Assembly: GCA_002781785.1 (NCBI GenBank)
Contig: PFGC01000041.1
Span: forward strand, 145-64,144
DNA length: 64,000 nt
Reading direction: 5' to 3'
Origin: Candidatus Kerfeldbacteria bacterium CG15_BIG_FIL_POST_REV_8_21_14_020_45_12
GTDB taxonomy: Bacteria > Patescibacteriota > Patescibacteriia > UBA9570 > XYC2-FULL-38-9
In this document: piece after piece, positions 33,284 through 51,021 of the stretch
How the letters are laid out: each line of letters starts with the position of its first letter
Position numbering within the stretch: position 1 is the first letter of the stretch
Translations under genes and position numbers: made by a program
The notes under the pieces: model-generated
What the model saw: the letters and a program-made list of their open reading frames with translations, nothing else
Told to the model about the DNA's origin: nothing
Databases searched by the model: none

Positions 33284-33285
33284 AT

Positions 33286-34368
33286 ATGTCAGTCATTCTT
33301 CGTAACATTCAAATCCCTCTCTTTATCAAAATAGAGACTGGTTGCTTGCAGAACATTCGACAAATTCTCGACGAACATCATTTGCATTTTCAAAAACCGT
33401 TAGTTCTGTCTGAAGAACACATTCTAGCCCTCGGCGGTAATGATGTTGTAAATGCTCTCGGCAATCCCGCCACAGTTTTGATGAAAGAAAATTCCATCGC
33501 GGCTGGCGACCGCCTAGCCAAGGAAATTAGAGAAAAGGGCAACGATCTGATTGTCAGCGTCGGCGGTGGCCGCACGCTTGACCTTGGTAAATACGCTGCT
33601 ACTAAAGCCGGTGTAAATTACATTTCAATACCAACCTCACCATCTAACGATGGTATTTGCTCTCCGGTAGCCGTACTGACAGACGACGACATGACCAAGA
33701 GCCTTCCTGTCAATATGCCTATTGGAATATTTGTCGACACCTCTATCCTAACCAGCGCTCCGATACACAACATTAGAGCTGGCATTGGAGATCTCATTTC
33801 AAATATGTCTGCTATAAACGACTGGAGACTAGCTTACCACGACGGCAAAGAAAGCATGGATGACTTTGCTGCCTCTATCGCTTTTTCCGCCGCTCAGCTA
33901 ATTCACGAAACCTGCCGCGGTGTAAATATAAATATTTCCGATGAAGCCTTTCTAGAAAAACTTGTCCATGGATTGATTCTGTCTGGAATTGCCATGAACA
34001 TTGCTGGCAACAGTCGTCCCTGTTCGGGTTCAGAACACGAAATCTCCCACGCTATTGATGCACTATTTCCTGGCAGATCTATTCATGGACTGCAGGTTTC
34101 TTATGGAACCTTACTTGGCTGCTTCCTCAGAAAAGAGGAGGACCTGCTGGTTGATTTAGTAGATTTTTTTGCTCGCGTTGAGCTGCCTGCCACTCACCAA
34201 GAACTAGGCCTTACCGATGATGAAATGATCGATGTGTTTCTAAAAGCTCCGGAAACTCGCCCAGAGCGATATACTATTTTGGAAAAACTACACATCACTG
34301 ACAGAGGTGCGGTAGCTAAACTGCTCAATGAATACAATGCCCACATCGCCGAACTCCAAGGTAAATAA
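33286..34368 (+). CDS. sn-glycerol-1-phosphate dehydrogenase-like enzyme (G1PDH/AraM family, DHQS-like iron-ADH superfamily)
   Basis: GGGRTLDLGKYAA (NAD site), IPTSPSNDGICS, DTSILTSAPIHNIRAGIGDLISN, metal-ligand region SGSEHEISHAID and HGLQVSYG. This pattern fits the G1PDH/glycerol-DH branch. Confidence 0.55.
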   Translation: MSVILRNIQIPLFIKIETGCLQNIRQILDEHHLHFQKPLVLSEEHILALGGNDVVNALGNPATVLMKENSIAAGDRLAKEIREKGNDLIVSVGGGRTLDLGKYAATKAGVNYISIPTSPSNDGICSPVAVLTDDDMTKSLPVNMPIGIFVDTSILTSAPIHNIRAGIGDLISNMSAINDWRLAYHDGKESMDDFAASIAFSAAQLIHETCRGVNINISDEAFLEKLVHGLILSGIAMNIAGNSRPCSGSEHEISHAIDALFPGRSIHGLQVSYGTLLGCFLRKEEDLLVDLVDFFARVELPATHQELGLTDDEMIDVFLKAPETRPERYTILEKLHITDRGAVAKLLNEYNAHIAELQGK

Positions 34369-35134
34369 TCAGGAAAATCCACGCTGGATAATAAAACGGG
34401 AAGATCCGCTCTATGGCCACTACGTTGTCCAGCAATTAGCCTACTTTGTAGTTAGGTTAATAGACCGAACCCCGATCACGCCAAATTTTGTCACAGCGCT
34501 CTCCTTTCTCACCGGCCTTACTGGCGCTGTACTTTTTGCTCTGGGCCAGCGTCACTATTTTATCTGGGGAATACTTTTTATAAACTTAGCCTTAATCCTT
34601 GATTGTGTTGATGGCCAGCTTTGCCGTAGACGTGGCACAGGCTCTAATTTTGGGGCTTGGCTTGACTACCATACGGATAAACTAAAAGACGGCGCCGTTC
34701 TACTTGGCTGGACCATTGGTGCCTACAAACTAGCCAGTGCTCATTCGGCAGAAATTGTTAGTAGCTTTCCGCAAACCTCTCTAGCCATACTTTATTTTAC
34801 AGTAGCTTTCTTAGCTATCTTCTTTCAATTTCTCCGCAATATCACAGCGCTTAATCGAGACATTAATACCCTGCAAAAAACCGGTCACAAAGATGAACCA
34901 AGAACCTTCTACGACACCTCAGCAAATTCTGGCCAATTCATCCGTTCACTCAAGCACTCTCTACTATTTAAGTATGCCGATCGCATCTTACTGTTTACTA
35001 TCTTTGGCTTACTAGGGCTTTACTTTCAAGCAATTATCGTGTACGCTGCCCTGGCAATTTTTTACGCAACGCTCTCTGCCTTCCTTAATTATCGTGAAGG
35101 CTGGCGCGCCGACCAAGTAAAACAACCCCAATAA
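34328..35134 (+). CDS. CDP-alcohol phosphatidyltransferase-family membrane enzyme
   Basis: Family motif D-G-x2-[AC]-R-x8-G-x3-D-x3-D is present as LDCVDGQLCRRRGTGSNFGAWLDYHTDKLKD. Multiple TM helices. Confidence 0.75.
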   Translation: MNTMPTSPNSKVNNQENPRWIIKREDPLYGHYVVQQLAYFVVRLIDRTPITPNFVTALSFLTGLTGAVLFALGQRHYFIWGILFINLALILDCVDGQLCRRRGTGSNFGAWLDYHTDKLKDGAVLLGWTIGAYKLASAHSAEIVSSFPQTSLAILYFTVAFLAIFFQFLRNITALNRDINTLQKTGHKDEPRTFYDTSANSGQFIRSLKHSLLFKYADRILLFTIFGLLGLYFQAIIVYAALAIFYATLSAFLNYREGWRADQVKQPQ

Positions 35135-35137
35135 ACT

Positions 35138-35365
35138 ATGCAAATTTCTCTACCTGACGATCTCGTCAAGCAACTAGAAAGCCGCGTTAGCGCCTCAACC
35201 GAATTTTCTACGATTGAAGAGTACGCTATCTACGTACTAACAGAGGTCTTAAAGCAGACCGACGACTCAAGTACTAAAAATAGCACTGATTCAGATGACA
35301 ATTACACTAAAGACCAAGAAGACGCTGTCAAAGACCGACTCGAGAGCTTAGGCTATTTAGATTAA
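35138..35365 (+). CDS. Small (75 aa) ribbon-helix-helix-like protein, paralog of 50824..51021
   Basis: N-terminus MQISLPDDLVKQLESRVS is RHH beta-strand plus helix-like. C-terminal tail VKDRLESLGYLD is shared with the ORF at 50824..51021. Tightly packed between neighbours, with a 3-nt gap upstream and a 2-nt gap downstream. Confidence 0.45.
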   Translation: MQISLPDDLVKQLESRVSASTEFSTIEEYAIYVLTEVLKQTDDSSTKNSTDSDDNYTKDQEDAVKDRLESLGYLD

Positions 35366-35367
35366 AC

Positions 35368-36051
35368 ATGCGCGCTGTCATCCTAGCCGCTGGGATGGGC
35401 ACACGTCTTGGTGGCGACGTTCCCAAACCCCTTACTCCGCTGATGGCAGATCGGACAATTATTGATTTACAAATTGCTAAACTAGAACCACTGGTCGGAC
35501 GAGACAACATTACAGTAGTCATCGGCTATGAGCAGGAACAATTCATGGACCGCTTTCCAGATCTTAATTTTGTAATAAACGAACAGTACCAGTTTACCAA
35601 TACCGCCAAGAGCTTACTACTGGCTCTTAAAACGATCAGCAACGAATCGGTACTTTGGATGAATGGCGATATCTTTTTTGATGACAGCGTACTCGACTAC
35701 CTTACCCAAGCCAGCGGATCAACCTGCCTAGTTGATACCAAGCAGTGCGGTGAGGAGGAGATAAAATATACAACCAACGAGCGTGGCACCATTGACCAGC
35801 TTTCCAAGCAGGTACAAAACGCTGAGGGAGAAGCTCTAGGGATAAATCTAATTGAAGCTACTGACCTAAGCCTGTTTACTGAACAGCTTGAGAGCGTCGG
35901 CGATAACGATTATTTTGAAAAGGCCCTCGAAGAACTTACAACTTCCGGGCGTTTGGAGCTGACTCCAGTCGATATTGAAACAGCTTTTTGCCAAGAGATA
36001 GACTTCCCAGAAGACCTCGCGCAAGTTCAAGCCCATCTTGAGGCCAATTAA
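35368..36051 (+). CDS. Nucleotidyltransferase (MobA/LicC-like)
   Basis: MRAVILAAGMGTRLGGDVPKPLTPL. Confidence 0.65.
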   Translation: MRAVILAAGMGTRLGGDVPKPLTPLMADRTIIDLQIAKLEPLVGRDNITVVIGYEQEQFMDRFPDLNFVINEQYQFTNTAKSLLLALKTISNESVLWMNGDIFFDDSVLDYLTQASGSTCLVDTKQCGEEEIKYTTNERGTIDQLSKQVQNAEGEALGINLIEATDLSLFTEQLESVGDNDYFEKALEELTTSGRLELTPVDIETAFCQEIDFPEDLAQVQAHLEAN

Positions 36052-36123
36052 CCAATAGCTTGAAACTCCAGCCAAAATACTGTACCCTTTCTTGGGTACA
36101 TTTTTGATCCTGATATACCACAT

Positions 36124-37755
36124 ATGAAGAAAAAAACCGTTGTTTTGGGGCTCGATGGAGCTACTTGGAAGATCCTAAAACCTTTTGCTGAAGCCGGCTA
36201 CATGCCGACATTAAAGGGATTACTTGAACGTGGCGTCCACGGCGAACTAGAATCCACCATGCCAGCCATGACTGCTCCGGCTTGGGTGACTTTCGCAACC
36301 GGAAAACATCCTGGTAATCACGGCGTGTTTGATTTTATGTTGCCTACCGACAGTTTGGGCAAGATGAAGTTTGCCACTGCAAAAGATATTCGTGATAAAA
36401 CACTCTACGAAATACTAAAAGACGAAGGATATACTCCAATTTTAGTTAACCTTCCCGCTACCTGGCCACCCAAGCGTGATGACATTATTACCATTACTAG
36501 CTTGCTAACCCAGGGCGACCAGTGGGTCTATCCAGCTTCTTTAAAGGAGGAATTCCCAGAACTAGCTAAGTACCGCCTAACTCCAGACGAGAGCCTGAGG
36601 GTGGCCGAACGCCGTGACGAGTACATCGTTGATCTACTTGCCCATCTTGAAGAGCAAATGGCAGCAGTTAGACGTTTATTTACTGAGAAACCCTGGGACT
36701 TTTTCTTCTACCTATTCTCACACTCAGATTGGATCTCGCACCTGGCTTACACTGAGCTCGAAGAAGAACATGAACCCAAAGCCAGGGCCATTTTTGAAAG
36801 AATTGACCAACACCTCAAGTGGTTTACAGAAAATATTCCAGCAGACACTAATTTAATCTTACTGTCTGATCATGGTTTTACGGCCTACAAAAAAGTTTTT
36901 TACTTTAACCGGTGGCTTGAGCAGGAAGGATATCTTAAGACCAACAAGGAAGGTGATAAAATGCGCGGTGCGGCAACTCGACGCGCGAAGGAGAGCGATA
37001 AAATTACGGCTACAAAAAAACGCGTAAACATTGGCACCGGCCTGCTTCGATTTCTTGATACTTTCCCCTTCTTAAAACCAGTTGCTAAGTGGTCCTACCA
37101 CTCAGTTATAAAAAAGTACCTACCAATAAATTTAAAAGTTAATGTTGGTATAGACTTTCCAAATACCAAAGTTTGCTTTCCTAAGGGTAGTTATATTACC
37201 AATGGTTATATCAATAAAAACTGGGTTTATACCGATGGTTGTATAAGTCGCGAAGAATATCCCAAATTAGTCGAAGAGCTGGCAGAGAAAATACGCAATA
37301 TCAAAGATCCGTCTGGCAATCCGGTAGTGGCTAAAGTAATGACTCGTAAAGAGGTTTACGGTGACACTGCTCCTGATGAGGCTCCAGATATTTTCTTTGA
37401 ACTATCGGACTACTGGCTGATTGGTAATTTTAATTCTAGCTCGCTATTTGATGAAGAGATAGAAAACAAACATGGCAAGATGGGTATTTTTCTAGCCGTC
37501 GGACCAGATTTTGAAACAGACGCCGATGTGGAAGGGCTAAAAATGCAAGATGTCACTCCAACTATTTTACATCTATTAGGTTTACCAGTACCTGAAGACT
37601 GCGACGGTCAGGTAGCCCACGCTCTGTTTAAAGCTGGCTCTGAGCCAAGAGAGCGTAGCGTTAACTTTGGAGCACCATCCAGACTAGACGATAAACCTAG
37701 TGAGTCCAGTGAAAAAACTTCTTTGGCCAAAGCAATTGGAAAAATAAAGCTCTAA
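36124..37755 (+). CDS. Alkaline-phosphatase-superfamily enzyme, NPP/type-I-phosphodiesterase-like (543 aa, cytoplasmic)
   Basis: N-terminus KTVVLGLDGATWKIL and the nucleophile region TMPAMTAPAWVTFATGKHPGNHGVFDF. This parallels the NPP motif T-F-P-N-H..TG.YP..HGI. Has no signal peptide. Paralog of 47244..48635. Confidence 0.7.
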   Translation: MKKKTVVLGLDGATWKILKPFAEAGYMPTLKGLLERGVHGELESTMPAMTAPAWVTFATGKHPGNHGVFDFMLPTDSLGKMKFATAKDIRDKTLYEILKDEGYTPILVNLPATWPPKRDDIITITSLLTQGDQWVYPASLKEEFPELAKYRLTPDESLRVAERRDEYIVDLLAHLEEQMAAVRRLFTEKPWDFFFYLFSHSDWISHLAYTELEEEHEPKARAIFERIDQHLKWFTENIPADTNLILLSDHGFTAYKKVFYFNRWLEQEGYLKTNKEGDKMRGAATRRAKESDKITATKKRVNIGTGLLRFLDTFPFLKPVAKWSYHSVIKKYLPINLKVNVGIDFPNTKVCFPKGSYITNGYINKNWVYTDGCISREEYPKLVEELAEKIRNIKDPSGNPVVAKVMTRKEVYGDTAPDEAPDIFFELSDYWLIGNFNSSSLFDEEIENKHGKMGIFLAVGPDFETDADVEGLKMQDVTPTILHLLGLPVPEDCDGQVAHALFKAGSEPRERSVNFGAPSRLDDKPSESSEKTSLAKAIGKIKL

Positions 37756-37807
37756 ATTCTACCCAAGTTGTGAGTGCTTACTCATATTACTAACACCATA
37801 TACAACT

Positions 37808-38230
37808 ATGGCCCTAGATCCAGAAACAATTAAAACTGAGCGTGCGAAAATACAGCAAATCAATGTCAGTGGCATTATCGGTGAATCTACACTTATTGAT
37901 CATACCGAGTGCATAGACCACTACGAATCTTCTATAGATACTGAAGTAAATCAAATAGATTTTTCCTACTCTGTACATAGTGGAATGTGCTCAACTGACT
38001 CAATCAACGATATTGTCCTACAACCTTTTGCTGAGGGCGCCAATGCAAAATTATCACTAACCGAAGCAGAGCCACATGCGATGGTTTCCGGTACTGTCTT
38101 GTATACAGAGGCTCCAGACCCAGAACCTTCGCTAAATACGACCTATCTGCTAGGCGGTGCTATAATTCTAGCTATTGGCATGATCATCGGACTAGCCTTG
38201 TCGCATTTGAAAAAAAATAAAATCACCTAA
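37808..38230 (+). CDS. Small tail-anchored protein (140 aa) with a C-terminal TM helix and basic tail
   Basis: No N-terminal hydrophobic segment. C-terminus ...EAPDPEPSLNTTYLLGGAIILAIGMIIGLALSHLKKNKIT. Confidence 0.4.
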   Translation: MALDPETIKTERAKIQQINVSGIIGESTLIDHTECIDHYESSIDTEVNQIDFSYSVHSGMCSTDSINDIVLQPFAEGANAKLSLTEAEPHAMVSGTVLYTEAPDPEPSLNTTYLLGGAIILAIGMIIGLALSHLKKNKIT

Positions 38231-40246: not shown

Positions 40247-41979
40247 TCAACTGGTAAAAGTCTATAAATATGAACGTCTGTCTGAAAACTGTAATTCTGC
40301 ACTAAAACTTCTTCGTGCGGTTGGTCTTCAAGCCACAAATGTAGCCTCACCGAAGAGGTAGAATCTTCCCAGACATAGACATCATACCCCGCTTGCAACA
40401 TCTGATCAAAAAACTTTTCAACCTCTACCTGATCAAAATCAAAGCGTTGTTCTAAAGGATAACGAATTGATTTAAGTCCAGTATGGGCCTCAACCATCTC
40501 TGATAAGCCGTACTGCCAGTCACCTGACATCATTAAAACACTTTTTTCATTCACTGGAACACCATCAGGAATCGACCGCAAAGTTGCCAAGTCATCTGCC
40601 GAAATAGACTTATTCCGATAGACTTGGGCAGCTAGATTTTCTCTTACTTCAGCTATAGTTGGCTGATACGAAAAAATAACTCCACCAATAATTCCGACCA
40701 CTACAACTACATGCTGCCAACGTTTTTGAAACAACCGAAAAACCCCATCCGTTACCACCTCAACTACACCGTAAACACCTATCACAATTAAGGCTGGAAA
40801 CAGCGGTAAAATATAACGAGAATATGGATTTATCCACAACGAAAAGATGGTTAAAACACCTAATACCCACAAGCTCAACAGAGCGGCAGTTGGCCTAGAC
40901 TCACGCCATAAATAGAGTAAACCAAAAGCTACAAAAACAATGAAATATGGAAGCGGAGTAGCGTTTTTAATTATCTGCCAATAGTGAGGCAAGGCTCCTT
41001 TACCGGGACGGAACTTGCCATCGTTATCGAATAAATTATTTACCGACAATGTCTGAATGTGGTTGATATTAGAAAGCAGTACAACTTCGCTAGTGTCTCT
41101 TTTTTTAAACACCTCCTTATGCGCAGAGATGGTGGCAGAATTTTGAATAGTTGGAATTAGCGCAATAATCCAAGTTACGAAGAAAACGCCAACGTAGGGC
41201 AACGTGTGTTTAAGATTTGTCTTCCAAGTGTACTGCTTGTGCCACAAAGCAGAAATAGCATAAACCAGTGCTGCAGGCAGAACTACCCCACTAGTCTCTC
41301 GAATATTAAAAGCCATTCCAAAAACCAAGGCTGAAACTACCAACCAAATCGTAGCCACACCGCGCTTTACCTCGCGATGCTTTAATTGCCGCACAGCCAT
41401 CACCAAAGCTATCATAGTTACCAGCAAAAAGGTCATCGACGGAATTTCTCGCATCGGTTGCGATAAAGCGTATGCGTAATACAAGCTAGAAAATCCTAAG
41501 GCCAGCGACGACAGCAAACCAATGACATGTCTATATTGATGTTTTGGAAAAAGAGTCATCACTAACAAATACGTCAGCACCAGATTAGTCGTAGCCAACA
41601 GCGGCATTACTAGATAGAACCCGGAGCTATCTCCAACTATTCTTGCCGCCAAAGCCAGTAGCAAAGATGCTCCAACTGGATACTTCGAAGCGATCCAGCC
41701 CTCTTGGTTAATAAACTCGTGGTGGGTCGGCGTCAGCCAGCGCGCCAATTTCTCATCTCCAAAAAAATCAAAACCCATCTGAGCTAAATCATCATGGTAC
41801 ACCAACGGCTTGTCTTGAATCATGCGTCCAGCCAAATATATGTAACCAGCCGAATCATCTCCCCAGGTTCCCCAAGCATGATCATCAAAATAGATTATAC
41901 CGAACAGCAAGACTATGGCAGCAATAATTACCCCGCCAATCAGCCAATGTATCAAAGATTTTTTTTTGTGTGGTGTCAT
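40243..41979 (-). CDS. Polytopic membrane protein (578 aa), possibly a GT-C-like glycosyltransferase
   Basis: More than 10 TM helices, an N-proximal acidic loop (WGTWGDDSAGYIY, YHDDLAQMGFDFFGDEK), and a C-terminal soluble domain. Overlaps cysC and the CDP-OH transferase by 4 nt each. Confidence 0.45.
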   Translation of the reverse strand: MTPHKKKSLIHWLIGGVIIAAIVLLFGIIYFDDHAWGTWGDDSAGYIYLAGRMIQDKPLVYHDDLAQMGFDFFGDEKLARWLTPTHHEFINQEGWIASKYPVGASLLLALAARIVGDSSGFYLVMPLLATTNLVLTYLLVMTLFPKHQYRHVIGLLSSLALGFSSLYYAYALSQPMREIPSMTFLLVTMIALVMAVRQLKHREVKRGVATIWLVVSALVFGMAFNIRETSGVVLPAALVYAISALWHKQYTWKTNLKHTLPYVGVFFVTWIIALIPTIQNSATISAHKEVFKKRDTSEVVLLSNINHIQTLSVNNLFDNDGKFRPGKGALPHYWQIIKNATPLPYFIVFVAFGLLYLWRESRPTAALLSLWVLGVLTIFSLWINPYSRYILPLFPALIVIGVYGVVEVVTDGVFRLFQKRWQHVVVVVGIIGGVIFSYQPTIAEVRENLAAQVYRNKSISADDLATLRSIPDGVPVNEKSVLMMSGDWQYGLSEMVEAHTGLKSIRYPLEQRFDFDQVEVEKFFDQMLQAGYDVYVWEDSTSSVRLHLWLEDQPHEEVLVQNYSFQTDVHIYRLLPVE

Positions 41980-42602
41980 GAAACGATTTGACGTCTCTTT
42001 AGCTCAGCAATTAACTGTTCAACACATTCATCAACGCTGTTCACGCCTGTATCAACAACAACCTCTGCTGTTTTTGGCTCCTCGTAAGGTGCGTCAATTC
42101 CAGTAAAATCCTTAATTTCACCAGCTCTAGCTTTTTTATACAAACCCTTTGGATCACGAGACTCACAAACTTCTAAATCACATTTAACATAGACCTCTAA
42201 AAATTGATTACCCTCCACCAGAGACCTGGCTGAATCACGATCACTTCGGTAGGGTGAAATAAAGGAAGCCATCACCACAACACCTGCATCCACAAACAAT
42301 TTGGCGACTTCTCCTATGCGACGAATATTTTCTGTTCTATCTTCTGGGGAAAAACCTAAGTCAGCATTTAAACCATGCCTAATGTTATCTCCATCCAATC
42401 TATAAGCCAGATTACCTAGCTGGTTTAGTCTAGTTTCTAAAGCTACAGCTACAGTTGACTTACCGGATCCCGATAAACCCGTAAACCACAAAACAACTCC
42501 TTTTTGAGATAATAATTTTTCACGGTCAACACGTGTAATTTCTCCCTCGTGCCAAGTAACGTTGGTAGATTTGTTCATGAATATACCTATTGAATAGATC
42601 AA
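41976..42602 (-). CDS. cysC: Adenylyl-sulfate (APS) kinase
   Basis: P-loop VLWFTGLSGSGKSTVAVALE. The motifs DGDNIRHGLNADLGFS and ENIRRIGEVAKLF are diagnostic of APS kinase. Confidence 0.88.
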   Translation of the reverse strand: MIYSIGIFMNKSTNVTWHEGEITRVDREKLLSQKGVVLWFTGLSGSGKSTVAVALETRLNQLGNLAYRLDGDNIRHGLNADLGFSPEDRTENIRRIGEVAKLFVDAGVVVMASFISPYRSDRDSARSLVEGNQFLEVYVKCDLEVCESRDPKGLYKKARAGEIKDFTGIDAPYEEPKTAEVVVDTGVNSVDECVEQLIAELKRRQIVS

Positions 42603-42661: not shown

Positions 42662-43444
42662 TTAAAGAAAGCGCCTTGGCTTGCCAGTCAACCACAAAGC
42701 ATCAAACATAGACATCAAGGCTCTAGCAATGCGTCGATGTTGTATACGAATAATAATTCCCTCTTCAGGCGTCACAAAGTGAACTACGTCGTCATGGATA
42801 AAAAACTCTTCAAATGGAAAGCGCTCCTCAACAATAGAGCGAAGTTGCCAATTTCGTTTGCAAAACAAAGCATACGTCTCAGCCGACATCATATTCGGAA
42901 TAGCAGAAATCATTTCGTCAGGGAAAATAGCTCGGGTAATTATTTTATTCTTAACAAAAAGTTCAACGATTCCGTGCCACTCATCATTCGTAAAACCACC
43001 TAAGTCGGCTTTGGCGTTAGCTCGACCTTGAATCACTCTAAACTCACTCCCAGAAGGGAGAGAGGCCAATTCATGATAGGTGTCATAATGAGCCTCATTA
43101 AAATCTCTAATAGTTACAACAGGCGCGGATTCGTCCACACTCTGCAATGATCCTAATTTAGGTACCAAGTTAGAAAAATCTGCGGTCCACTTTTCAAAGC
43201 GTTGCAAAAGTGATGCCGGTGAAGTTGCTGAAAAATATTTAACCCCACTAACTTCGTGCACTTTTATAACTAATAAACGATGGAGTTCATCTAATTGAAA
43301 ATATATAGCTGAACGCTTCATGCCAACTTTACGAGCTATGGTGGAAGCAGGCAAGCGTCCAAATTTTAACAACACAAAATAGATTTTGGAGTGCTGCTCA
43401 GTCAAGCCAAAATTCTTAAATATTCTAATCAAACGCTGTTCCAT
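42662..43444 (-). CDS. TrmB-like HTH transcriptional regulator with a C-terminal ligand-binding-like domain
   Basis: N-terminus LTEQHSKIYFVLLKFGRLPASTIARKVGMKRSAIYFQLDELHRLLVIK follows the TrmB wHTH pattern. Divergent from 43586. Confidence 0.5.
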   Translation of the reverse strand: MEQRLIRIFKNFGLTEQHSKIYFVLLKFGRLPASTIARKVGMKRSAIYFQLDELHRLLVIKVHEVSGVKYFSATSPASLLQRFEKWTADFSNLVPKLGSLQSVDESAPVVTIRDFNEAHYDTYHELASLPSGSEFRVIQGRANAKADLGGFTNDEWHGIVELFVKNKIITRAIFPDEMISAIPNMMSAETYALFCKRNWQLRSIVEERFPFEEFFIHDDVVHFVTPEEGIIIRIQHRRIARALMSMFDALWLTGKPRRFL

Positions 43445-43585
43445 AAAATTACTATATCAAAATATATCTACATTGTCAAAAATAATTAACAACAAAAAAA
43501 CATACTTTTTTAGGTGTAAATTTAAAAAATACAAAAAAGTCAATTCAAATCAACATAAAATAAACAATTCTGCTATCCTGTAGCC
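43445..43585. promoter_or_regulatory. AT-rich divergent promoter/operator region between the TrmB-like regulator and the ATP-grasp gene
   Basis: 141 bp of A/T-rich sequence with poly-A tracts between divergently oriented genes. Likely contains both promoters and the regulator's operator. Confidence 0.35.
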
Positions 43586-44992
43586 ATGAATAAAGACCTG
43601 CTGGATAAAAACAGCTCCAAACCCAGAACTATAGTGGTATGTCCAGGGATAACTTTCCCTGACTGGATATACGCTGAAATAACTGGTCTGCGATATTTTG
43701 AAGAAAGGCTTTTATATTTCCTATTTCATTGTAAATATCCTGGACAACGACTTATCTACCTTCTATCTGAAGCGCTAGATCCAGAAGAATTACACTACTG
43801 GATCACAACAGCTGCCGCTGCCATGAACATGAGTTCACAGGTTTTAAAAGAACGACTCACAATAATAACCGTCAACGACACATCAGACAAAGGGCTAGCC
43901 CAAAAAATTCTAGCTAGCCCCAAAGTGATTGAGTTAATTAAAAATGAAATAACTGAAACATCAAATACCTACCTAGAAGTTTTTGCTGTTAGCCAACATG
44001 AGATACAACTAGCAAAAGACCTAGGCATCCCCTATTGGGGAAATACACCAACAGCCCTTAAGTATGACCAAAAAGGCCCAGCCCGAGAACTAGCTAAGTC
44101 AGTTGGCGTAAAGGTAGCGCCAGGTAAAGAAAATATTAATAATCTTACCGGCGCCTATGCTGCCTGGAAAGAGCTTGGCGCGAAACCCGGAAAATACATG
44201 CTCAAAATAAATACTGGTGACGGGGGTGTTGGTCTCTGGAAAATAGACATGTCACAAAATAAGGTCTTAGATTTTACAAACTTCCGTAAAACTATTCCAG
44301 AGACCAAGCTCACCGATAGACTTGAAGAGCTCCTAAGTAACGAAGGTGGAATACTGGAACAATATATTGAGGCACCAATAAAAATATCTCCGAGCATTCA
44401 GTACTTAGCGTGGAGCGCTACTGATTTTACTTACATAGGAGCCCACGAGCAAGATCTAGCCGATGATAAATACGTTGGCTCCTATTTTCCAGCTGAATCA
44501 GATCAAGCCAGCAGTATGCGCGAGGCCGGTGACCTAATCATGCATGAATTAATAAAAAACGGTGTCCGAGGACGAGTGTCCATGGATTTTCTTCTCACTA
44601 AAAACTCCCCTGAAGAAAAGTGGACAACCTATCTCATAGAATTGAACATCAGAAAAGGAGGAACTACTCACACCGAACAATGGGCTGAATACCTAACTGG
44701 AGCTCGCTTAACAGAAGGCTTGCTTACCAGGCAAGATAATAAACCGGTTTACTATTACAGCAGCGAAAAAGGTAGTCTTCGGGATGAATTTTCTCAGCTG
44801 TCAACGAGCAACTTCCTAGCCCAAGTAAATAAGGCGGGCCTTGCTTACTCTCAGTTAACACAAAGTGGTATATTTTTCCATCTACTATCCCAACGAGCAC
44901 CATTTCATAAAGTCGGGTATACTGCCATTGGACGTACTCGCTCTGAAACCATAGAGCTGAAGAAAAAATTTGAAGAAAAATTTGGTAAATAA
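43586..44992 (+). CDS. ATP-grasp-fold ligase-like protein (468 aa) with an N-terminal extension
   Basis: C-terminal YLIELNIRKGGTTH matches the ATP-grasp Mg-binding E-x-N motif. A Gly-rich KINTGDGGVGLWKID segment lies upstream. Confidence 0.45.
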   Translation: MNKDLLDKNSSKPRTIVVCPGITFPDWIYAEITGLRYFEERLLYFLFHCKYPGQRLIYLLSEALDPEELHYWITTAAAAMNMSSQVLKERLTIITVNDTSDKGLAQKILASPKVIELIKNEITETSNTYLEVFAVSQHEIQLAKDLGIPYWGNTPTALKYDQKGPARELAKSVGVKVAPGKENINNLTGAYAAWKELGAKPGKYMLKINTGDGGVGLWKIDMSQNKVLDFTNFRKTIPETKLTDRLEELLSNEGGILEQYIEAPIKISPSIQYLAWSATDFTYIGAHEQDLADDKYVGSYFPAESDQASSMREAGDLIMHELIKNGVRGRVSMDFLLTKNSPEEKWTTYLIELNIRKGGTTHTEQWAEYLTGARLTEGLLTRQDNKPVYYYSSEKGSLRDEFSQLSTSNFLAQVNKAGLAYSQLTQSGIFFHLLSQRAPFHKVGYTAIGRTRSETIELKKKFEEKFGK

Positions 44993-44995
44993 GCT

Positions 44996-46078
44996 ATGAG
45001 AGAAAGAAGAATTCAAACACTTGGAGATCTTAGTAGGGCTACAAAACAAGAGGGCCACAATGTAATCGAAGAACTTGAGGCCGATCTCATAACAGAAGTG
45101 CATACCCTAAAAGAAGCTCAGCAGCAATCAGCGGAACTCCTTAGTCAAGGTCAGGGCGTGCTACTAGTTGACACCACCCTGGGTAATGTACGACGAATTA
45201 TTGACGAGGGTAATAAGCGCTTTGCAGGCAATGCAAATTTAGAACTATACGCGCGAATGATAATATCTGCCCTACACGGCGGCTCAGAACCTACTGACTA
45301 TACAGACTTAATTGCCTCTTGGACTGGACTATCACGTGATCACATACAGACATTAGACATCAGAAATAGCGGATCACCCCAAGAGCTAGACACATCAATC
45401 AAGGCGGTGCTCTTCTCCGGCTCTCCATCACATCTACCGAATATAGGCAGTGGTAAAGAAATTAGACCAGGCATCACCGATGCTGATGTTTACAACCGAT
45501 CTCTAGCTGTTTGGCGCGAGGCTGTTAAAGCAGGCCTTCCAGAGTTTGGGATCTGTTATGGACTTCAGCGTGGTGCCAAGCATGTTGGTATGGATATTTT
45601 GCAGCAACCCGGCCGTTCCCAAGCCGGTGAAGCAACTCAGATCGTGACCCAAGAGGGAGTAGATATAATAAGCATGCTTGGCTGCACGACTGATCCAAGC
45701 GAATTAGCTGGAAGGATTTCTGCATTTCGTAGCGACGAAGTTCAAGGTACTCCAGATCCAAGATTTGCCTCTATTCTATTTACCCCACATGACCTTGACC
45801 CCAGTATGGTTTTTGGTCTAATCCACAATCCTCAAGGCACTGGCACTAGTCCAGAAATAATCAAACAAGTATTAGCCGCTGGTCAATCAGCTGGTTTAGA
45901 CATCCAAGGCCATCCAGAAATAAGACGCGGCGAACGAGCCCGAATTTCCGCCGGAGCTGGCCGTAACTTAGATAACATTCCACTGCGTTTGAATGGTTCA
46001 GATCAAGAACTATCAACGGCCATGCTAAAAATGATGACTGAGTTTTTCCGTCTTCACAAAAGAGCTGAGCGCGCTTAA
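44996..46078 (+). CDS. Class I glutamine-amidotransferase-like (GATase1 / C26 peptidase-like) protein with an about 150-aa N-terminal extension
   Basis: Nucleophile elbow FGICYGLQ (G-x-C-x-G-x-Q) and, near the C-terminus, the His-Pro-Glu motif LDIQGHPEI. Confidence 0.45.
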   Translation: MRERRIQTLGDLSRATKQEGHNVIEELEADLITEVHTLKEAQQQSAELLSQGQGVLLVDTTLGNVRRIIDEGNKRFAGNANLELYARMIISALHGGSEPTDYTDLIASWTGLSRDHIQTLDIRNSGSPQELDTSIKAVLFSGSPSHLPNIGSGKEIRPGITDADVYNRSLAVWREAVKAGLPEFGICYGLQRGAKHVGMDILQQPGRSQAGEATQIVTQEGVDIISMLGCTTDPSELAGRISAFRSDEVQGTPDPRFASILFTPHDLDPSMVFGLIHNPQGTGTSPEIIKQVLAAGQSAGLDIQGHPEIRRGERARISAGAGRNLDNIPLRLNGSDQELSTAMLKMMTEFFRLHKRAERA

Positions 46079-46119
46079 AATTACACTACGATTTTAAGCC
46101 AAGATCAGGCCAGATAAAA

Positions 46120-47166
46120 TTACCAGCTAATTCCGTCCAACTTATCGGCTCTAGCGTAAACAAATTGCTTAGCCTCTGGTAGCTGGTATGCCATACGTCG
46201 ACAAGCCTCGGTGATACTGGGGCTTAATTCACCCTTTATTCCAAAAGTTCCACCTGTTCTAAAAATTGCATCCTCCACTGCCTGTAAATTAGCGCCAACT
46301 AATCTGACTGAATCTGAATCATCTCTAACTGGCCCTCCACGGGGAACCTCTCCAGCGCTTTTTAAGAAATCTTCCAGGCTCAGAAAGGCGCCTTCCAAAT
46401 CTTGAATATCCTCACTAGTTAAAGGCTGTTCAGAATTACGCGTGGTAAATGGCTCAACAACAGCTAAAACTGAGTGTAATCTACTTGGATCATCTCCAAA
46501 CATCTCATTAAATCCCTGACTCTGCCTATCTCCCAATACAGCAACAAGACCTGTCACTGCGTACTGTGTTTCCAACATTCTTTCTTTGACTTGCGCCTGC
46601 CATTCCACGTCAATTTCAGCTCCCTCTACTTCACCCTCAGGAGCTGCTCCTAGGATCTGCTCAGACAAATCTTCAACGGCATCAGCTGCCGCTGGCTTAT
46701 CTCCCACCTCGACTTCCGCTACACCTTCATCCAGCTGAGCCTCCCACGTTTCAAAAGCCTCACGATTAGCGCGGGCATCCTTAATAAGCGTAAGTGCATC
46801 AAAGGCTGCTTGTAGATCAGCTTGTTGCTCGCGAAAACTCTCTTGTTGCGCCGGATCCTTAGACTGCGGGTCAAGTGTTCGCAGTCTCATTTCACGCACC
46901 TGAACATCTCCATCGATGACGTCGTACAGTCCTTCTGGCTGAGAGCCAGCAAAGCCTGGTAAAACTGATCTAACATAATCAGTTACCCTTTCAGCGCGCT
47001 GACCATCAATACCAACAGCGTCCATGCGGCCAGCCTGCTGCGCGTAATCTAAATATTTACTTAGAACGCCAATCCCCTCTCCGGCCGGCAAAAAACTCGG
47101 AGCTTGTTCAGTTGCCTCCTGGGCTGGTCTTTTACCTTTAGGATCGCCATTTGGGTTAAATGACAT
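46120..47166 (-). CDS. Hypothetical acidic Ala/Glu/Gln/Gly-rich protein with compositionally atypical, GC-richer codons
   Basis: ORF of 348 aa. Local GC is about 50-57% in sampled 60-nt stretches, versus about 45% nearby. No motif recognised. Confidence 0.35.
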   Translation of the reverse strand: MSFNPNGDPKGKRPAQEATEQAPSFLPAGEGIGVLSKYLDYAQQAGRMDAVGIDGQRAERVTDYVRSVLPGFAGSQPEGLYDVIDGDVQVREMRLRTLDPQSKDPAQQESFREQQADLQAAFDALTLIKDARANREAFETWEAQLDEGVAEVEVGDKPAAADAVEDLSEQILGAAPEGEVEGAEIDVEWQAQVKERMLETQYAVTGLVAVLGDRQSQGFNEMFGDDPSRLHSVLAVVEPFTTRNSEQPLTSEDIQDLEGAFLSLEDFLKSAGEVPRGGPVRDDSDSVRLVGANLQAVEDAIFRTGGTFGIKGELSPSITEACRRMAYQLPEAKQFVYARADKLDGISW

Positions 47167-47243: not shown

Positions 47244-48635
47244 CTATTCAATAACCTTGCCGCGCATGTCACTTGGTACGCCCTGACCAAAGTCTGCGAG
47301 AATAGATGGCGTAACATCTAGAATATCCAAATCATCCCGCTTCCCCTGCCCTGCCACAGCCGGATCATATTTTACAAAGATTCCGTTCCAGTCATGTACA
47401 CCATAATCTAAACCACGATCATCCTGATCAATGTAATGACTATCATATCCAAGCGTGCCGGCTACTTTCCAATACAAGTCTCCCCAAAAAATTAGTAAGT
47501 CTGGGACATCTCCAGTGGCTTCTGGATATAATTCTGTAGCTCTATATATCTTGTGCTCTAAAACCTGACCATCAGGACCTGCTACCTGCATGAGCTTGCC
47601 TCTTAGCTCCTCGATAAAACTTTCATACTCAGCCTCAGGTACGACGCCTTGAGGCTCTCGTCCCTCCAAGTTAACAAACAGTCGAGCGTAAAAACCACCC
47701 CACGCCCAGGCGCGAGTTTTGGACCAGTCTACATCACACTTTTCAATACTAGTTGGTTCCTTTGGTTTATTCTTTAACACCAAATAGCCATTATCAATTA
47801 ACCATTCATTGATAACAAACATACCTTCCATCCGCTTAGCTCCGTGATCAGACACCACATAAAAAATCGTGCCCTCAGGTGCTAAAGCCTGCAAATCTCC
47901 AATCCACCTATCAATGTGTCTATAATATTCACGAATCTTTTCCTCGTAAGGATTTCCAGCTTCGTAATCTTTGTGCTCTGGATCCATGTACTGCCACAGA
48001 TAGTGATGAATACGATCTACACCCATCTCTACCATCATCAAGAAATCCCACTCTTTCTCTGTAATCCATTGCTTGAAAATCTTTTGCCGCTGATCGGTCA
48101 TTTTATAGATAACATCCAGCACCTCATCAGGTGGAGCCTGAGTACGATTTGCAAAATCGAAGATGTAGTCATCTGGAGCGACCGCATCTAAAATTTCCTT
48201 TTTTAGCTCAGCTGGATAAGTAAACTCAACATCTGTACCAGGTGTCAGAAAACTTGAAACCATCATTCCATTCACAGGCCTAACTGGATAAGTTTGAGGA
48301 ACTCCCAACATGCCGACTTTTTTTCCGGCGTCACCCAAATATTCCCAAACTCGTTTCTCCTTAACCATGCCACCATGAGCAATATCCATTTCGCCATAAT
48401 CAGAACCGGGTGTACGGGATCTGAAACCATAAATACCCAAATCACCAGCATGTTTGCTAGTGGTCATAGCCGCCCAAGCTGGCACTGTAATTGGTGGGAT
48501 AGTACTTTTTAGTGGGCCCCAAGTGCCTTGCTTCATCATGGCCGCAATATTCGGCAAATCTTCTTGATAACGATCAAACACCAGTTGCGGGGTCGCACAG
48601 TCTAATCCAATAACGATAACTTTAGGTTCACTCAT
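47244..48635 (-). CDS. Alkaline-phosphatase-superfamily enzyme, NPP/type-I-phosphodiesterase-like (463 aa, cytoplasmic), paralog of 36124..37755
   Basis: N-terminus KVIVIGLDCATPQLV and TIPPITVPAWAAMTTSKHAGDLGIYGF align with the paralog's GLDGATW and nucleophile region. Confidence 0.7.
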   Translation of the reverse strand: MSEPKVIVIGLDCATPQLVFDRYQEDLPNIAAMMKQGTWGPLKSTIPPITVPAWAAMTTSKHAGDLGIYGFRSRTPGSDYGEMDIAHGGMVKEKRVWEYLGDAGKKVGMLGVPQTYPVRPVNGMMVSSFLTPGTDVEFTYPAELKKEILDAVAPDDYIFDFANRTQAPPDEVLDVIYKMTDQRQKIFKQWITEKEWDFLMMVEMGVDRIHHYLWQYMDPEHKDYEAGNPYEEKIREYYRHIDRWIGDLQALAPEGTIFYVVSDHGAKRMEGMFVINEWLIDNGYLVLKNKPKEPTSIEKCDVDWSKTRAWAWGGFYARLFVNLEGREPQGVVPEAEYESFIEELRGKLMQVAGPDGQVLEHKIYRATELYPEATGDVPDLLIFWGDLYWKVAGTLGYDSHYIDQDDRGLDYGVHDWNGIFVKYDPAVAGQGKRDDLDILDVTPSILADFGQGVPSDMRGKVIE

Positions 48636-48638: not shown

Positions 48639-49655
48639 CTATGATAATTGATCAAGCAAAAACTTCTCTACTTTTGGCAAAAAATCTGACAGTGTCATGT
48701 CCAATAAAACAATGCCAGCGACCTCAGGCTTGCCACCAGAATTTTGTCCTAGCCCCCTCGCAAACTCTGTAACCTTACGACAATCAATCTTGTCTGTACG
48801 TGTTCGAATATAGACCATATCAAGTCCACCTTTGCTCTGCCAAGTTAGCACTACTTTATCAGCAAACTCTCGAGCCTTGGCCCGAGTAGCCTCGGACAAG
48901 ACGCTAACTTCCGAAATAAATTCAAAAGACACTAAATCGGCCGATTCTATGTATGTTTTCGGTTCCTGATTCAAAACCCGCTTTAATTCATCAGAAATTT
49001 TTTGTTCATTCATTACAAATCTAGCATCAGTCAATACCAACTTTGGATCACGCCGTAAAATATCAATCGTATCAGCCATGCCCCGTGAATCACCCAACAT
49101 ATACATCGTATCGACCAATTTAGTGAGGCGCATAATTCCAGGCCAATCCAAACCTGACTCCTCCATCATTTCTCTTACTTGTGGCCAAAACTCCGCCTCA
49201 TCGCGAATCGCCTCTTCCTTATCCCCAACCGCACCAAGTACCGATACTAATGACAGCGGCTTCATCAAGTAATCATTAATCAGCATCGATGCAGATGGGT
49301 ATTTAGTGTCCTGCAAACCCGGTCGATCAATATCAGCAGTCTGAGCGTGATTATCAAAAACAAACAACAACCCACCTTCTTCTAGTCGCGTTATCGTATC
49401 AAGCGGGGCATTAAAATCCATCATTACAACGGCATCAGCTCCGTAAGCAGCTATCCGTTCAAACTCCTCATTCACTAGAAAATAACGATTGATGGTGGGG
49501 TGTTCGATTATAATTTCAGTGGCCGGAGAGACCTCCTCAAAAAAATTAATGAAGAGTGCGCAGCTGGCCAAACCATCGCAGTCCCAATGGTACAGTAAGA
49601 CTACCTTCGCAGGTTTTGCAGTCGATACCCACTCCTGAAAATCTGGATGTAGCAT
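48639..49655 (-). CDS. DHH-family phosphoesterase (NrnA-like), probable 3'-phosphoadenosine-5'-phosphate (pAp) phosphatase / nanoRNase
   Basis: N-terminal DHH motif I/II region VVLLYHWDCDGLASCAL, as in NrnA (H..PDGDA.GS), and DNHAQT (DHH-like motif III). Start and stop abut sat and the AlkP-like gene. Confidence 0.6.
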   Translation of the reverse strand: MLHPDFQEWVSTAKPAKVVLLYHWDCDGLASCALFINFFEEVSPATEIIIEHPTINRYFLVNEEFERIAAYGADAVVMMDFNAPLDTITRLEEGGLLFVFDNHAQTADIDRPGLQDTKYPSASMLINDYLMKPLSLVSVLGAVGDKEEAIRDEAEFWPQVREMMEESGLDWPGIMRLTKLVDTMYMLGDSRGMADTIDILRRDPKLVLTDARFVMNEQKISDELKRVLNQEPKTYIESADLVSFEFISEVSVLSEATRAKAREFADKVVLTWQSKGGLDMVYIRTRTDKIDCRKVTEFARGLGQNSGGKPEVAGIVLLDMTLSDFLPKVEKFLLDQLS

Positions 49656-50831
49656 CTACTCAACAAACAAGGACTTCTGCTGCAGTAACATTTCAACAAT
49701 CTGCGGACGCATGATATCTGCTGGCACAGGTTGTCCAGCGCTAAGTAGATCACGAATTTTTGTTCCAGAAGGCGGCACACGAACATCGTCACCGTGACCA
49801 CAAGTCTTAGAGGTAGCTACTGTTTCACAAGTCTTACACATGAATGAGTGCTCAAACTTAAGAATTTTAATTCCAATTTCATCCTCGATGCCTTCAAAAA
49901 TTTTCTGAGCAGCATAAGTGCCATAATAATCTCCTACCCCAGCATGATCTCGCCCAACCACAAAATGTGTACAGCCAAAATTCTTACGAATGATGGCATG
50001 TAAGACAGCCTCACGTGGACCAGCGTAATTCATGCGAGCCGGTAAAATTGAAAAAGTAGCGCTCTCACGTGGAAAGAAGTTCTCAATCATAAAATGATAG
50101 GCCTTAATGATGACCTCATCTTGAAAATCTCCTGTTTTTTTCTTTCCAATAATCGGATTTATAAATAATCCATCAGTTAACTCTAAGGCACACCGCTGTA
50201 GATATTCGTGCGCTCGATGTGGCACATTTCTTGTTTGAAATCCAGCTACCGTTTTCCAACCTCGCTCTTTAAATAAGTATCTAGTTTCCGCTGGATCTAA
50301 ATTAACTTCGTAATATGGCTCCTTTGTATTATCAATCAAATCAATAAGCCCACCAACTAAACGTGACTTCATGGCCTGCCAGTGAGCCACTCCCGGATGC
50401 GCCGAATCATCAGTTCCGTAAACAAAACGAGCCACATGCGCCGCGTCATAACCGTAAATATCACCAACGTGCAATACAGCGATTAAATTACCGGTCGCAT
50501 CCTGCAAAGCTACCTCATCTCCGGTGTTCATATTTGAAGCATCTTCTTCTGACACATCCAACACGAATGGTATAGACCAAATTGTCCCGTCAGCCAGTCT
50601 CATCTCTTCCACCACCCGCACAAAATCAGACTCATTCATGAATCCTGTCAGTGGACTTAAAACTCCCCGGGCAATATTTTTTACATCTTTAACCTGCTCA
50701 TCATCTAAGGTTAGAGAAAATTTTCCGGCCAGTCTGGTTTTTGCCTCAGCTGCATGCGCCTCACTGAGCACTCTATTAACTAACGTGTTGCCATGTGGTG
50801 GTATTAAAATATGTTCCATAACCTTAATCAA
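49656..50831 (-). CDS. sat: Sulfate adenylyltransferase (homo-oligomeric ATP sulfurylase type)
   Basis: Diagnostic motifs GFQTRNVPHRAHEYLQ (QTRN...HRAH) and VVGRDHAGVG (GRDHAG). Confidence 0.88.
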   Translation of the reverse strand: MIKVMEHILIPPHGNTLVNRVLSEAHAAEAKTRLAGKFSLTLDDEQVKDVKNIARGVLSPLTGFMNESDFVRVVEEMRLADGTIWSIPFVLDVSEEDASNMNTGDEVALQDATGNLIAVLHVGDIYGYDAAHVARFVYGTDDSAHPGVAHWQAMKSRLVGGLIDLIDNTKEPYYEVNLDPAETRYLFKERGWKTVAGFQTRNVPHRAHEYLQRCALELTDGLFINPIIGKKKTGDFQDEVIIKAYHFMIENFFPRESATFSILPARMNYAGPREAVLHAIIRKNFGCTHFVVGRDHAGVGDYYGTYAAQKIFEGIEDEIGIKILKFEHSFMCKTCETVATSKTCGHGDDVRVPPSGTKIRDLLSAGQPVPADIMRPQIVEMLLQQKSLFVE

Positions 50832-51021
50832 TATATCCTAATGATTTCAAGCGCTCCTTGATTTTAGCCTCATCATGATCTTGGTAAACAGCTCCGGCAG
50901 CTTTAAGTGAATCTCCCAGCATTTCTTGGACAAGCTGATCCACTGTGACTCCGCGCTGGGTAGCCATTTGATCTAGCTTTATAAATAAATCTTCACTGAT
51001 TTGTACGGGCTTATTCGTCAT
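50824..51021 (-). CDS. Small (65 aa) ribbon-helix-helix-like protein, paralog of 35138..35365
   Basis: QISEDLFIKLDQMATQRGVTVDQLVQEML is an RHH-like strand plus helices. C-terminal tail IKERLKSLGYID is shared with the ORF at 35138..35365. Overlaps sat by 8 nt and the GT2 gene by 11 nt. Confidence 0.45.
   Translation of the reverse strand: MTNKPVQISEDLFIKLDQMATQRGVTVDQLVQEMLGDSLKAAGAVYQDHDEAKIKERLKSLGYID

Follow-up and report, generated by a model that had tools for sequence, protein, structure and literature searches.

A family of small ribbon-helix-helix-like proteins with a conserved C-terminal tail as candidate regulators of sulfate activation operons

MetJ of Escherichia coli is a small ribbon-helix-helix (RHH) methionine repressor which binds arrays of short tandem boxes with S-adenosylmethionine as its co-repressor, and it has no conserved C-terminal tail. 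In the case of Mnt and Arc of phage P22, neighbouring RHH dimers cooperate on half-sites about one helical turn apart, and the C-terminal helix of Mnt makes the tetramer. In the CymR-CysK and CysE-CysK pairs, a sulfur-pathway enzyme binds a regulator or a C-terminal peptide, with metabolite levels setting gene expression. To my knowledge, no transcription factor has been described for sulfate activation or for the synthesis of 3′-phosphoadenosine 5′-phosphosulfate (PAPS) in archaea, Dehalococcoidia, or bacteria of the candidate phyla radiation (CPR), and the literature search found none in these groups. In this study, two small open reading frames (ORFs) were analysed in a 64-kb stretch of DNA (the window) of contig PFGC01000041.1 from Candidatus Kerfeldbacteria, a CPR lineage. 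ORF A (35138..35365, plus strand) encodes an RHH-like protein of 75 amino acids (aa) with an YTKDQEDAVKDRLESLGYLD tail, and ORF B (50824..51021, minus strand) encodes one of 65 aa with an KIKERLKSLGYID tail; NCBI labels both as hypothetical. Here I propose that they and their relatives are probably DNA-binding RHH regulators of operons for sulfate uptake, activation to APS (adenosine 5′-phosphosulfate) and PAPS, and sulfotransfer.

The protein family and its predicted fold

The translation of ORF A ends in AVKDRLESLGYLD, including DRLESLGYLD, and that of ORF B ends in KIKERLKSLGYID, including ERLKSLGYID. Among the ORFs of the window, only these two have the R-L-x-S-L-G-Y-[LI]-D ending, and the translations and coordinates agree with an earlier note on this DNA in which the common tail was pointed out. 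A BLASTP alignment of the two proteins is limited to the last 20 residues (50% identity, pairwise E 2e-5), and a family alignment places them in register across their full length. The ORF A call draws on translation, homologues (53-65% identity), synteny, an AlphaFold2 (AF2) model, and codon pattern; the ORF B call draws on translation, synteny, and a family profile (E 4e-19). In the last 20 codons of ORF A, 13 synonymous and 4 non-synonymous changes were found relative to the orthologue of the L085 locus (loci are given L numbers). The change in the tail codons is thus mostly synonymous, and therefore the ORFs are translated and under protein-level selection, as the earlier note presupposed.

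The family profile was made from ORF A, its seven homologues, and ORF B, and was run against 1.84 billion representative proteins. It returned 1230 cluster representatives at E ≤ 1e-3, of which 138 reach E ≤ 1e-10. Almost all of the best 150 members are 64-80 aa in length with the tail at the C-terminus; they begin with an N-terminal segment resembling a strand and continue with two helices, an acidic linker, and a C-terminal amphipathic helix. The tail consensus at the very end is E-x-[VI]-[KR]-x-R-L-x-x-L-G-Y-[LIM]-[DE]. Its L, G, and Y are invariant in an alignment of 71 sequences, and across the domains of life no other part of the protein is as well conserved as the tail. No Pfam or NCBIfam model covers the family: none of the 71 members reaches a Pfam cut-off, and neither window ORF matches. 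No paper was found on the family, on its tail, or on the PF01663 family in connection with PAPS metabolism. ORF A and ORF B are members of a large, sharply defined, undescribed family, and the tail is not a generic RHH ending, since the profile search defines a specific family. About 1200 clusters of "hypothetical protein" could gain a family model. Two metagenome proteins, P0130 (185 aa) and P0145 (116 aa), are natural single-chain fusions of two or three RHH-tail modules, the first module being tailless; the AF2 model of P0130, which has three modules, was made without an alignment, had a mean predicted confidence (pLDDT) of 44 and was not used.

The RHH assignment of the two window proteins is probable, judging from family-level alignments. 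The family consensus TVSIP..L...I..R I.GTGF.SVS.YV.YVLRE shows a strand and two helices in register with the RHH domain of NikR. With the RHH domain of E. coli NikR, hhalign aligned 42 columns in register (Prob 61%, E 8e-5), and the NikR chains in PDB gave weak profile matches (E ~0.5). Among the 71 members, 16 have sub-threshold RHH matches (7 FitA-like, 5 RHH_1, and 4 RHH_5). A paralogue outside this set, the first gene of a paired clade (L010:9780-10001), scores 21.3 bits with PF01402 RHH_1, above the cut-off of 20.5. The RHH-like nature suggested in the earlier note is supported by this paralogue and by the NikR alignment. ORF A itself has no match to the RHH models of Pfam and NCBIfam, and ORF B has weak NCBIfam matches far below the cut-offs (BrnA antitoxin, E 0.009; LexA-regulated RHH, E 0.03). 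In the single-chain AF2 model of ORF A (pLDDT 76), residues 1-6 are extended, and helices span 7-19, 26-43, and 58-70. The RHH helices have pLDDT values of about 75-85, the region around 44-57 is disordered (below 50 at 46-53), and the helix at 58-70 is confident.

Operon context and upstream repeats

A one-genome-per-species scan with the tail-family alignment gave at least 448 confirmed places among 600 pattern matches, and the best 80 were kept as loci (L005-L084). They come from at least ten lineages: Thermoplasmatota, Aciduliprofundum/DHVE2, Dehalococcoidia, Asgard, ANME-1, Hadarchaeota, Altiarchaeales, Aenigmatarchaeota, Actinomycetota, and Desulfotomaculum. The ORFs of the loci were searched with the window proteins as queries. 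In these 80 loci, the small gene is normally the first gene of an operon for sulfate uptake, activation, or sulfotransfer. Of 76 loci, 73 have the next gene on the same strand (the median gap being about 9 nt), and the upstream gene is divergent in 36 of 69. The usual order is the small gene, ATP sulfurylase (Sat), a DHH protein, an alkaline phosphatase (AlkP)-like protein in some, and APS kinase; in some loci, CysD/CysN replace Sat. Sat was found in 41 of the 80 loci, APS kinase in 38, the DHH protein in 37, and a PF01663 AlkP-like protein in 26. Directly downstream of the small gene is Sat in 40 of 76 loci and AlkP in 8. The other downstream genes fall into groups: small sulfotransferases (26 loci), CysD (16), CysN (10), Na/sulfate symporters (14), TauE (11), and sugar-nucleotide enzymes.

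The counts are clearest in the 42 well-covered loci with at least 6 kb downstream. The same-strand run holds some sulfate gene in 40 of them (95%), an ATP sulfurylase, either Sat or CysD, in 36 (86%), APS kinase in 23, AlkP in 20 (24 anywhere in the locus), and DHH in 20. Since Sat and CysD are not homologous, the association is more readily understood as one with the pathway than as one with a single enzyme. The DHH/DHHA1 phosphoesterase of the window (48639..49655, minus strand) is a probable phosphatase of 3′-phosphoadenosine 5′-phosphate (PAP), to judge from similarity. Its matches to DHH (26.5 bits) and DHHA1 (19.1 bits) lie below the cut-offs of 28.1 and 25.9. Its sole PDB relative is the PAP phosphatase of Methanothermococcus thermolithotrophicus (8A8K, E 2e-14, residues 16-326), and the gene comes directly after sat; its sequence kinship and its place in a locus with ATP sulfurylase and APS kinase fit a DHH-type PAP phosphatase. 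From the context counts and this kinship, therefore, the family is tied to the PAPS pathway with either type of ATP sulfurylase.

In the reverse direction, eight homologues of the short AlkP-like protein of the window (463 aa, AlkP463) were looked up, giving nine loci, of which L086 and L087 are near-identical. A small gene lies directly before Sat in L086/L087, L088, L093, L095, and L097; the Sat operon of L085 has none. L094 and L096 have AlkP but no sulfate genes, and they also have no small gene. Therefore, the small gene follows sat, not AlkP. In L086/L087 and L097, the long AlkP is kept and the ORF A-type gene is missing. Such dispensability, in which relatives (L085, L086, and L097) keep the enzymes without one small gene, supports a regulator.

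The earlier note took the small proteins to be dedicated to AlkP-like enzymes, as partners, adaptors, or regulators. Its expectation that they co-occur with PF01663 genes beyond this genome proved right, both in about half of the loci and, for the long AlkP, in CPR relatives. The dedication itself was not supported, the steadiest neighbours being ATP sulfurylase, APS kinase, and the DHH-type PAP phosphatase. Are the small proteins purely adaptors or subunits of AlkP-like enzymes, docking through the tail and not binding DNA? I regard this as unlikely. It would suit the eight loci in which AlkP directly follows the small gene, the ORF A orthologues of L001, L085, and L088, which lie between a CDP-alcohol transferase and the long AlkP and abut the latter, the second small gene of L095, which comes right after a 529-aa AlkP, and ORF A itself, with its truncated strand and no operator nearby. 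However, 22 of the 42 well-covered loci have no AlkP in the operon, AlkP genes persist without a small gene in L085, L086, and L097, and no small gene is present in L094 and L096, where AlkP stands without sulfate genes. The operator-like repeats described below and the RHH matches would also be left unexplained. No fusion of the tail to AlkP was seen: none of the 12 longest among 120 listed AlkP463 homologues (of more than 7600) carries an LGY tail. Nor does the tail mimic an internal AlkP segment, INEWLxxxGYL, which occurs in only 5 of 41 AlkPs of the loci. Thus, the AlkP link is real but secondary, and the primary link is to sulfate activation.

The AlkP-like protein deserves attention of its own. 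The JGI label of the short type is "predicted AlkP superfamily phosphohydrolase/phosphomutase", and many loci have its gene placed between those of DHH and APS kinase. In Desulfotomaculum copahuensis (NZ_LYVF01000166.1), a 777-aa fusion of AlkP and APS kinase (L072:10244-12574) comes directly after the small gene, with the PF01663 AlkP-like domain at residues 5-403 and APS kinase at 615-760. The operons of L049, L058, and L069 lack both Sat and DHH and run small gene, AlkP, and APS kinase, and in L048 AlkP occupies the usual place of DHH. From the fusion and these orders, therefore, the AlkP-like enzyme appears to have a part in PAPS metabolism that is yet to be assigned. That this widespread PF01663 protein belongs regularly to PAPS operons, and can be fused to APS kinase, points to an unassigned step of the pathway.

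Some loci have two overlapping small genes in tandem, both tailed (L005-L007, L009-L011, L013, L014, L016, L027, L042, L051, L057, and L073). Their hosts are Dehalococcoidia, ANME-1/Methanospirareceae, and one Halobacteriota metagenome-assembled genome. The first gene ends with RLR+LGYL, to which most add a short acidic stretch such as KEEE; those of L027, L042, L051, and L073 stop at LGYL. The second gene ends with LGYLD or LGYLE, and TauE, CysD, CysN, and AlkP are downstream in most.

Arrays of TAATTA-like hexamers were found upstream of the small genes, with the consensus TAAT[T/G]A-n-A-T-w-TAATTA. The hexamers prefer a spacing of 10 bp and cluster between -60 and -10 relative to the start codon; those of the DHVE2 loci are downstream of a TTTATA-type box. 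An example from the DHVE2/Aciduliprofundum loci L015 and L017 is TAATTAAATATAATTA. When up to one mismatch is allowed, 41 of 72 loci have the pair TAATTA-N4/5-TAATTA in the upstream 150 bp (83 matches, 7.7 per kb), compared with 5 of 364 other intergenic regions of the same loci (0.098 per kb). The tandem-gene loci of Dehalococcoidia, ANME-1, and Halobacteriota, whose N-terminal strand is KVTIKIP, have the palindrome ACTACAATTGTAGT instead, between the -10 or TATA element and the ATG. With at most two mismatches it was found in 7 of 14 tandem-gene loci, and 4 other matches were found in 1 Mb.

The type of repeat tracks the type of N-terminal strand. Among 51 loci with a TTVSIP-like strand, 41 have the TAATTA array and none has the palindrome (at most three mismatches); the 14 loci with the KVTIKIP strand have 4 arrays and 13 palindromes; and the 9 loci with other strands have neither. 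L093 (Bathyarchaeota) and L097, which were found independently via AlkP, show the same pattern. No Rfam family matches the repeat-bearing upstream regions. Extra intergenic TAATTA pairs were found away from the small gene (L024:3675, L045:756, L049:6656, L058:6593, L070:2635, and L082:1450), and these could be further regulon members or chance matches. The presence of the tandem-gene cassette with the same palindrome in bacteria and archaea suggests transfer between the domains.

The upstream repeats have the look of a predicted operator for an autoregulatory RHH repressor, and repression of the operon is the most likely role of the family. A regulatory role is the best supported of the proposals made in the earlier note. 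RHH dimers would bind the upstream repeats, with one dimer per palindromic TAATTA hexamer and neighbouring hexamers one helical turn apart. The binding would repress the small gene and the downstream sulfate genes, as MetJ, Arc, and Mnt do on tandem boxes. The tail helix would join neighbouring dimers, like the C-terminal helix of Mnt, or carry a pathway signal. A candidate regulator with a predicted operator would then be present in hundreds of uncultured lineages, and the regulation of sulfation could be tested with a 70-residue protein and a 16-bp site. A cassette of regulator, operator, and enzymes shared by archaea and bacteria would be a regulatory unit moving across domains.

Several points weigh against a repressor of sulfate operons. 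The 80 loci were taken as the top tblastn matches of a single Dehalococcoidia-type query and a single tail pattern, which makes them a biased sample. The link between protein and repeat rests on co-occurrence, and strand, repeat, and operon type (Sat or CysD/CysN) are confounded by the shared ancestry of the cassettes. Neither the TAATTA pair nor an ACTACAATTGTAGT-like site was found near the window ORFs or in the intergenic regions of their two operons, and the small genes of CPR relatives are also mid-operon with neither kind of repeat nearby. No long palindrome was seen upstream of ORF A, ORF B, or the examined CPR orthologues, except in L001, which has a 12-bp palindrome, aataacgttatt, 22 nt before the start. 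Neither window ORF reaches the cut-off of any RHH model. The strand of ORF A is very short; just two polar residues face outward, and basic residues are lacking. A metagenome scan with the family alignment returned only four loci, and in two of them the family members (L091:5096-5332 and L092:7974-8210) adjoin glycosyltransferase and epimerase genes. No sulfate gene was found there in about 13 kb by similarity to the sulfate-pathway proteins of the window and two sulfotransferases, so not every family member heads a sulfate operon. The tail, moreover, is more conserved than the DNA-binding half and resembles the C-termini of CysD and APS kinase, which a simple repressor leaves unexplained. Finally, Foldseek gave no significant match, its top matches being RHH antitoxins (ParD, MazE-mt1, VapB, and AtaR; E 1.3-5.7). 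The size and architecture of the family would fit the antitoxin of a type II toxin-antitoxin pair, as would these matches and the weak BrnA match of ORF B. Nevertheless, no toxin-like gene lies beside any of about 90 loci, and what follows the small gene is metabolic enzymes and transporters. With Sat, DHH, AlkP, APS kinase, CysD/CysN, sulfotransferases, and transporters as neighbours, the toxin-antitoxin reading is rejected by gene context as barely conceivable.

The conserved tail

Does the tail occur in the enzymes encoded with the family? Among the proteins of the loci, it is absent from Sat, DHH, AlkP, sulfotransferases, CysN, and transporters (0 each). CysD ends with MQKLRALGYM in 11 of 18 cases, and APS kinase has termini like KKLEELGYI (L..LGY[IV]) in 13 of 38. 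Tail-like ends were recorded for the CysD of L006, L010, L016, L027, L033, L042, L051, L073, L078, and L084, and for the APS kinase of L030, L032, L034, L036, L043, L046, L067, L075, L081, L082, and L093. The corresponding region of Pseudomonas syringae CysD (PDB 1ZUN) is MEEKKRQGYF. The best local hhalign matches run from tail to tail, although they are weak: CysD reached E 5e-4 (Prob 31%), and APS kinase reached E 1.5e-3 (Prob 17%). From these sequences, the two kinds of protein may have a helix cap or a docking site in common, or the likeness may be mimicry.

A docking site, in line with the docking peptide that the earlier note suggested, would make the family a conditional repressor. It would bind DNA as proposed above, the tail would dock on APS kinase, the CysD/CysN complex, or the AlkP-like enzyme, and repression would track the level or ligand state of the enzyme, much as RHH antitoxins are coupled to their toxins or CymR to CysK. 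I regard this as a tentative possibility. It would account for the extreme conservation of the tail and for its resemblance to the very ends of enzymes from the same operons. The order of RHH domain, flexible acidic linker, and short amphipathic helix is also that of the RHH antitoxins that top the non-significant Foldseek list. On the other hand, there is no enzyme that all loci have in common: CysD is missing from Sat-type operons, and about half of the loci have AlkP. L..LGY is a motif often seen after a helix, weak matches of the tail to PG_binding_2, POTRA, and UFL1_C were also obtained, and the hhalign probabilities are low. Carboxylate-anchored docking is unlikely because the C-terminal residues vary (LD, L, LE, ID, I, or LKEEE). 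The members of L091 and L092 have very acidic linkers and the C-termini VKDRLESLGYLD/NS. The more specific idea, that the tail mimics the CysD and APS kinase tails and so plugs the repressor into the sulfate-activating machinery or the AlkP-like enzyme, with enzyme occupancy or pathway state setting the transcription of the PAPS operon, is rather doubtful. If true, it would be an antitoxin-like, enzyme-coupled repressor, spread with its operator among archaea, Chloroflexi, and CPR bacteria. A proteasome-type HbYX motif was ruled out for the C-terminus; Gly precedes Tyr, and the end varies.

It was also considered that the tail Tyr may be a modification site, for example for O-sulfation by a sulfotransferase of the operon, the protein being a substrate, a carrier, or a PAPS sensor. 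The Tyr is invariant and adjoins an acidic residue and the acidic linker, and besides the small sulfotransferases of the 26 loci, L002-L004 have a gene of the Sulfotransfer_2 type after the ORF A homologue. This is nevertheless very improbable. A sulfotransferase is present in only about a third of the loci, the G at -1 and R/K at -5 and -7 are unlike known tyrosine-sulfation sites, and CysD and APS kinase have this G-Y-[hydrophobic] ending as well, in their case as part of the enzyme fold. Co-location with sulfotransferases is the one thing that speaks for sulfation, which was set aside.

The Kerfeldbacteria operons and described systems

In the window, ORF A starts 3 nt after the stop codon of a CDP-alcohol phosphatidyltransferase gene (34328..35134, plus strand; PF01066) and ends 2 nt before the start of a MobA-like nucleotidyltransferase gene (35368..36051, plus; PF12804), exactly as the earlier note had it. 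The latter lies between ORF A and the gene of the long AlkP/NPP-like enzyme (543 aa; 36124..37755, plus; PF01663 E 4e-38). On the other strand, ORF B overlaps the 3′ end of a GT2 glycosyltransferase gene (51011..51976, minus; PF00535) by 11 nt. It is followed by sat (49656..50831, minus; PF01747 and PUA_2), the DHH gene, and the gene of AlkP463 (47244..48635, minus; PF01663 E 9e-47). The overlap with GT2 had been noted before, together with one between ORF B and sat, which requires a TTG start at 50831. The orthologues begin with MEH(I/L)LIPPHG, and the likely start is the ATG at 50819, 4 nt past the stop codon of ORF B; therefore, sat most likely does not overlap ORF B. Likewise, each small ORF was thought to be one gene away from an AlkP; this is the case for ORF A, whereas two genes, Sat and DHH, intervene for ORF B. 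The two AlkP-like proteins are paralogs as proposed, both exceeding the PF01663 cut-off of 23 bits (132 for the long one and 161 for the short one). Their sequence identity is 29%, and both contain GLD[GC]AT and T-[AV]-P-A-W of the metal-ligand and Thr-nucleophile region.

Both small genes of the window are mid-operon with 3-nt or overlapping junctions. Thus, the contrast drawn earlier with RHH repressors at operon heads stands for this CPR lineage but not for the family, which is found at operon heads with operator-like repeats. In CPR relatives, the two operons are convergent neighbours. The first runs UGDH, GT2, small gene B, Sat, DHH, AlkP463, APS kinase, PMT_2, and CDP-alcohol transferase; the second runs flippase, nucleotidyltransferase, Fe-ADH_2, CDP-alcohol transferase, small gene A, and a 541-residue AlkP (AlkP541). 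ORF B orthologues lie between GT2 and Sat in L086, L087, and L088. The ORF A clade always follows a CDP-alcohol transferase, which has the same position in L001, L003, L004, L085, L088, and L089, and it is beside or near an AlkP of about 540 aa in the window, L001, L002, L085, and L088. In a synteny comparison, the MobA-like nucleotidyltransferase was not at the corresponding position in L001, L085, and L088. ORF B is in the canonical, presumably ancestral place of the family, directly upstream of sat, yet inside a longer glycan operon. ORF A is a CPR-specific paralogue in a CDP-alcohol/glycerol-phosphate operon beside the long AlkP, and its very short strand, MQISLP, may leave room for a changed role.

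The APS kinase gene of the window (CysC; 41976..42602, minus; PF01583 E 5e-72) is split from the sat operon, which it adjoins in relatives. It comes directly after AlkP463 in L085, L088, and L097, and one uncharacterised ORF intervenes in L086 and L087. Relative to L085 and L088, an insertion at 42662..47166 parts the two genes. It contains a TrmB-like regulator (42662-43444), a 468-aa protein matching PGM1_C, a weak match to class-I glutamine amidotransferase, and a 348-aa ORF (46120-47166) for which Pfam gave no match. A 728-aa ORF in 27772-29958 (minus) and a 140-aa ORF at 37808-38230 (plus), after the long AlkP, also have no Pfam match. The island at 30044-39547 (plus) and 39560-42602 (minus) encodes a glycerol-1-phosphate-dehydrogenase-like Fe-ADH_2, two CDP-alcohol phosphatidyltransferases, two nucleotidyltransferases, a PMT_2-type transferase, and a flippase, beside the PAPS genes, and it is syntenic in the Patescibacteria loci L085, L088, and L097. 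The content of the island (30044-42602) suggests a sulfated surface glycoconjugate modified with phospho-alcohols.

How does the family compare with described systems? According to the main text of PMC10322725, the DHH-type PAP phosphatase of M. thermolithotrophicus is active, and its locus holds ATP sulfurylase, APS kinase, and this phosphatase, the same enzyme set as the operons headed by the family; that main text mentions neither a small RHH protein nor an AlkP-like enzyme. Like the RHH antitoxins ParD, MazE-mt1, VapB, and AtaR, the family is predicted to have an N-terminal RHH domain and a flexible C-terminal segment able to form a helix, but it adjoins sulfate-pathway genes and no toxin gene. 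The clearest in-register RHH alignment is with NikR: ORF A starts with MQISLPDDL, and NikR starts with MQRVTITLDDDL. Unlike NikR, however, the family has no ACT-like metal-binding tetramerisation domain and ends about 25 residues past the RHH domain. CymR-CysK is a precedent for tail docking only, since CymR is of the Rrf2 type, CysK binds peptides ending in isoleucine, and there is no CysK here. Mnt shares the order of RHH domain, linker, and helix predicted for the family in the AF2 model; the tail of the family differs in being much shorter, with about 13 helical residues, and in having an acidic disordered linker before it and a near-invariant sequence across archaea and bacteria. MetJ is a small RHH protein of sulfur metabolism with tandem boxes between the promoter and the start codon, to which the TAATTA hexamers at 10-bp spacing would correspond. 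There is no detectable sequence relationship to MetJ, and the present family is tailed and linked to sulfate activation rather than methionine synthesis. RHH regulators are already known; what is new here is the conserved tail and the proposed regulon.

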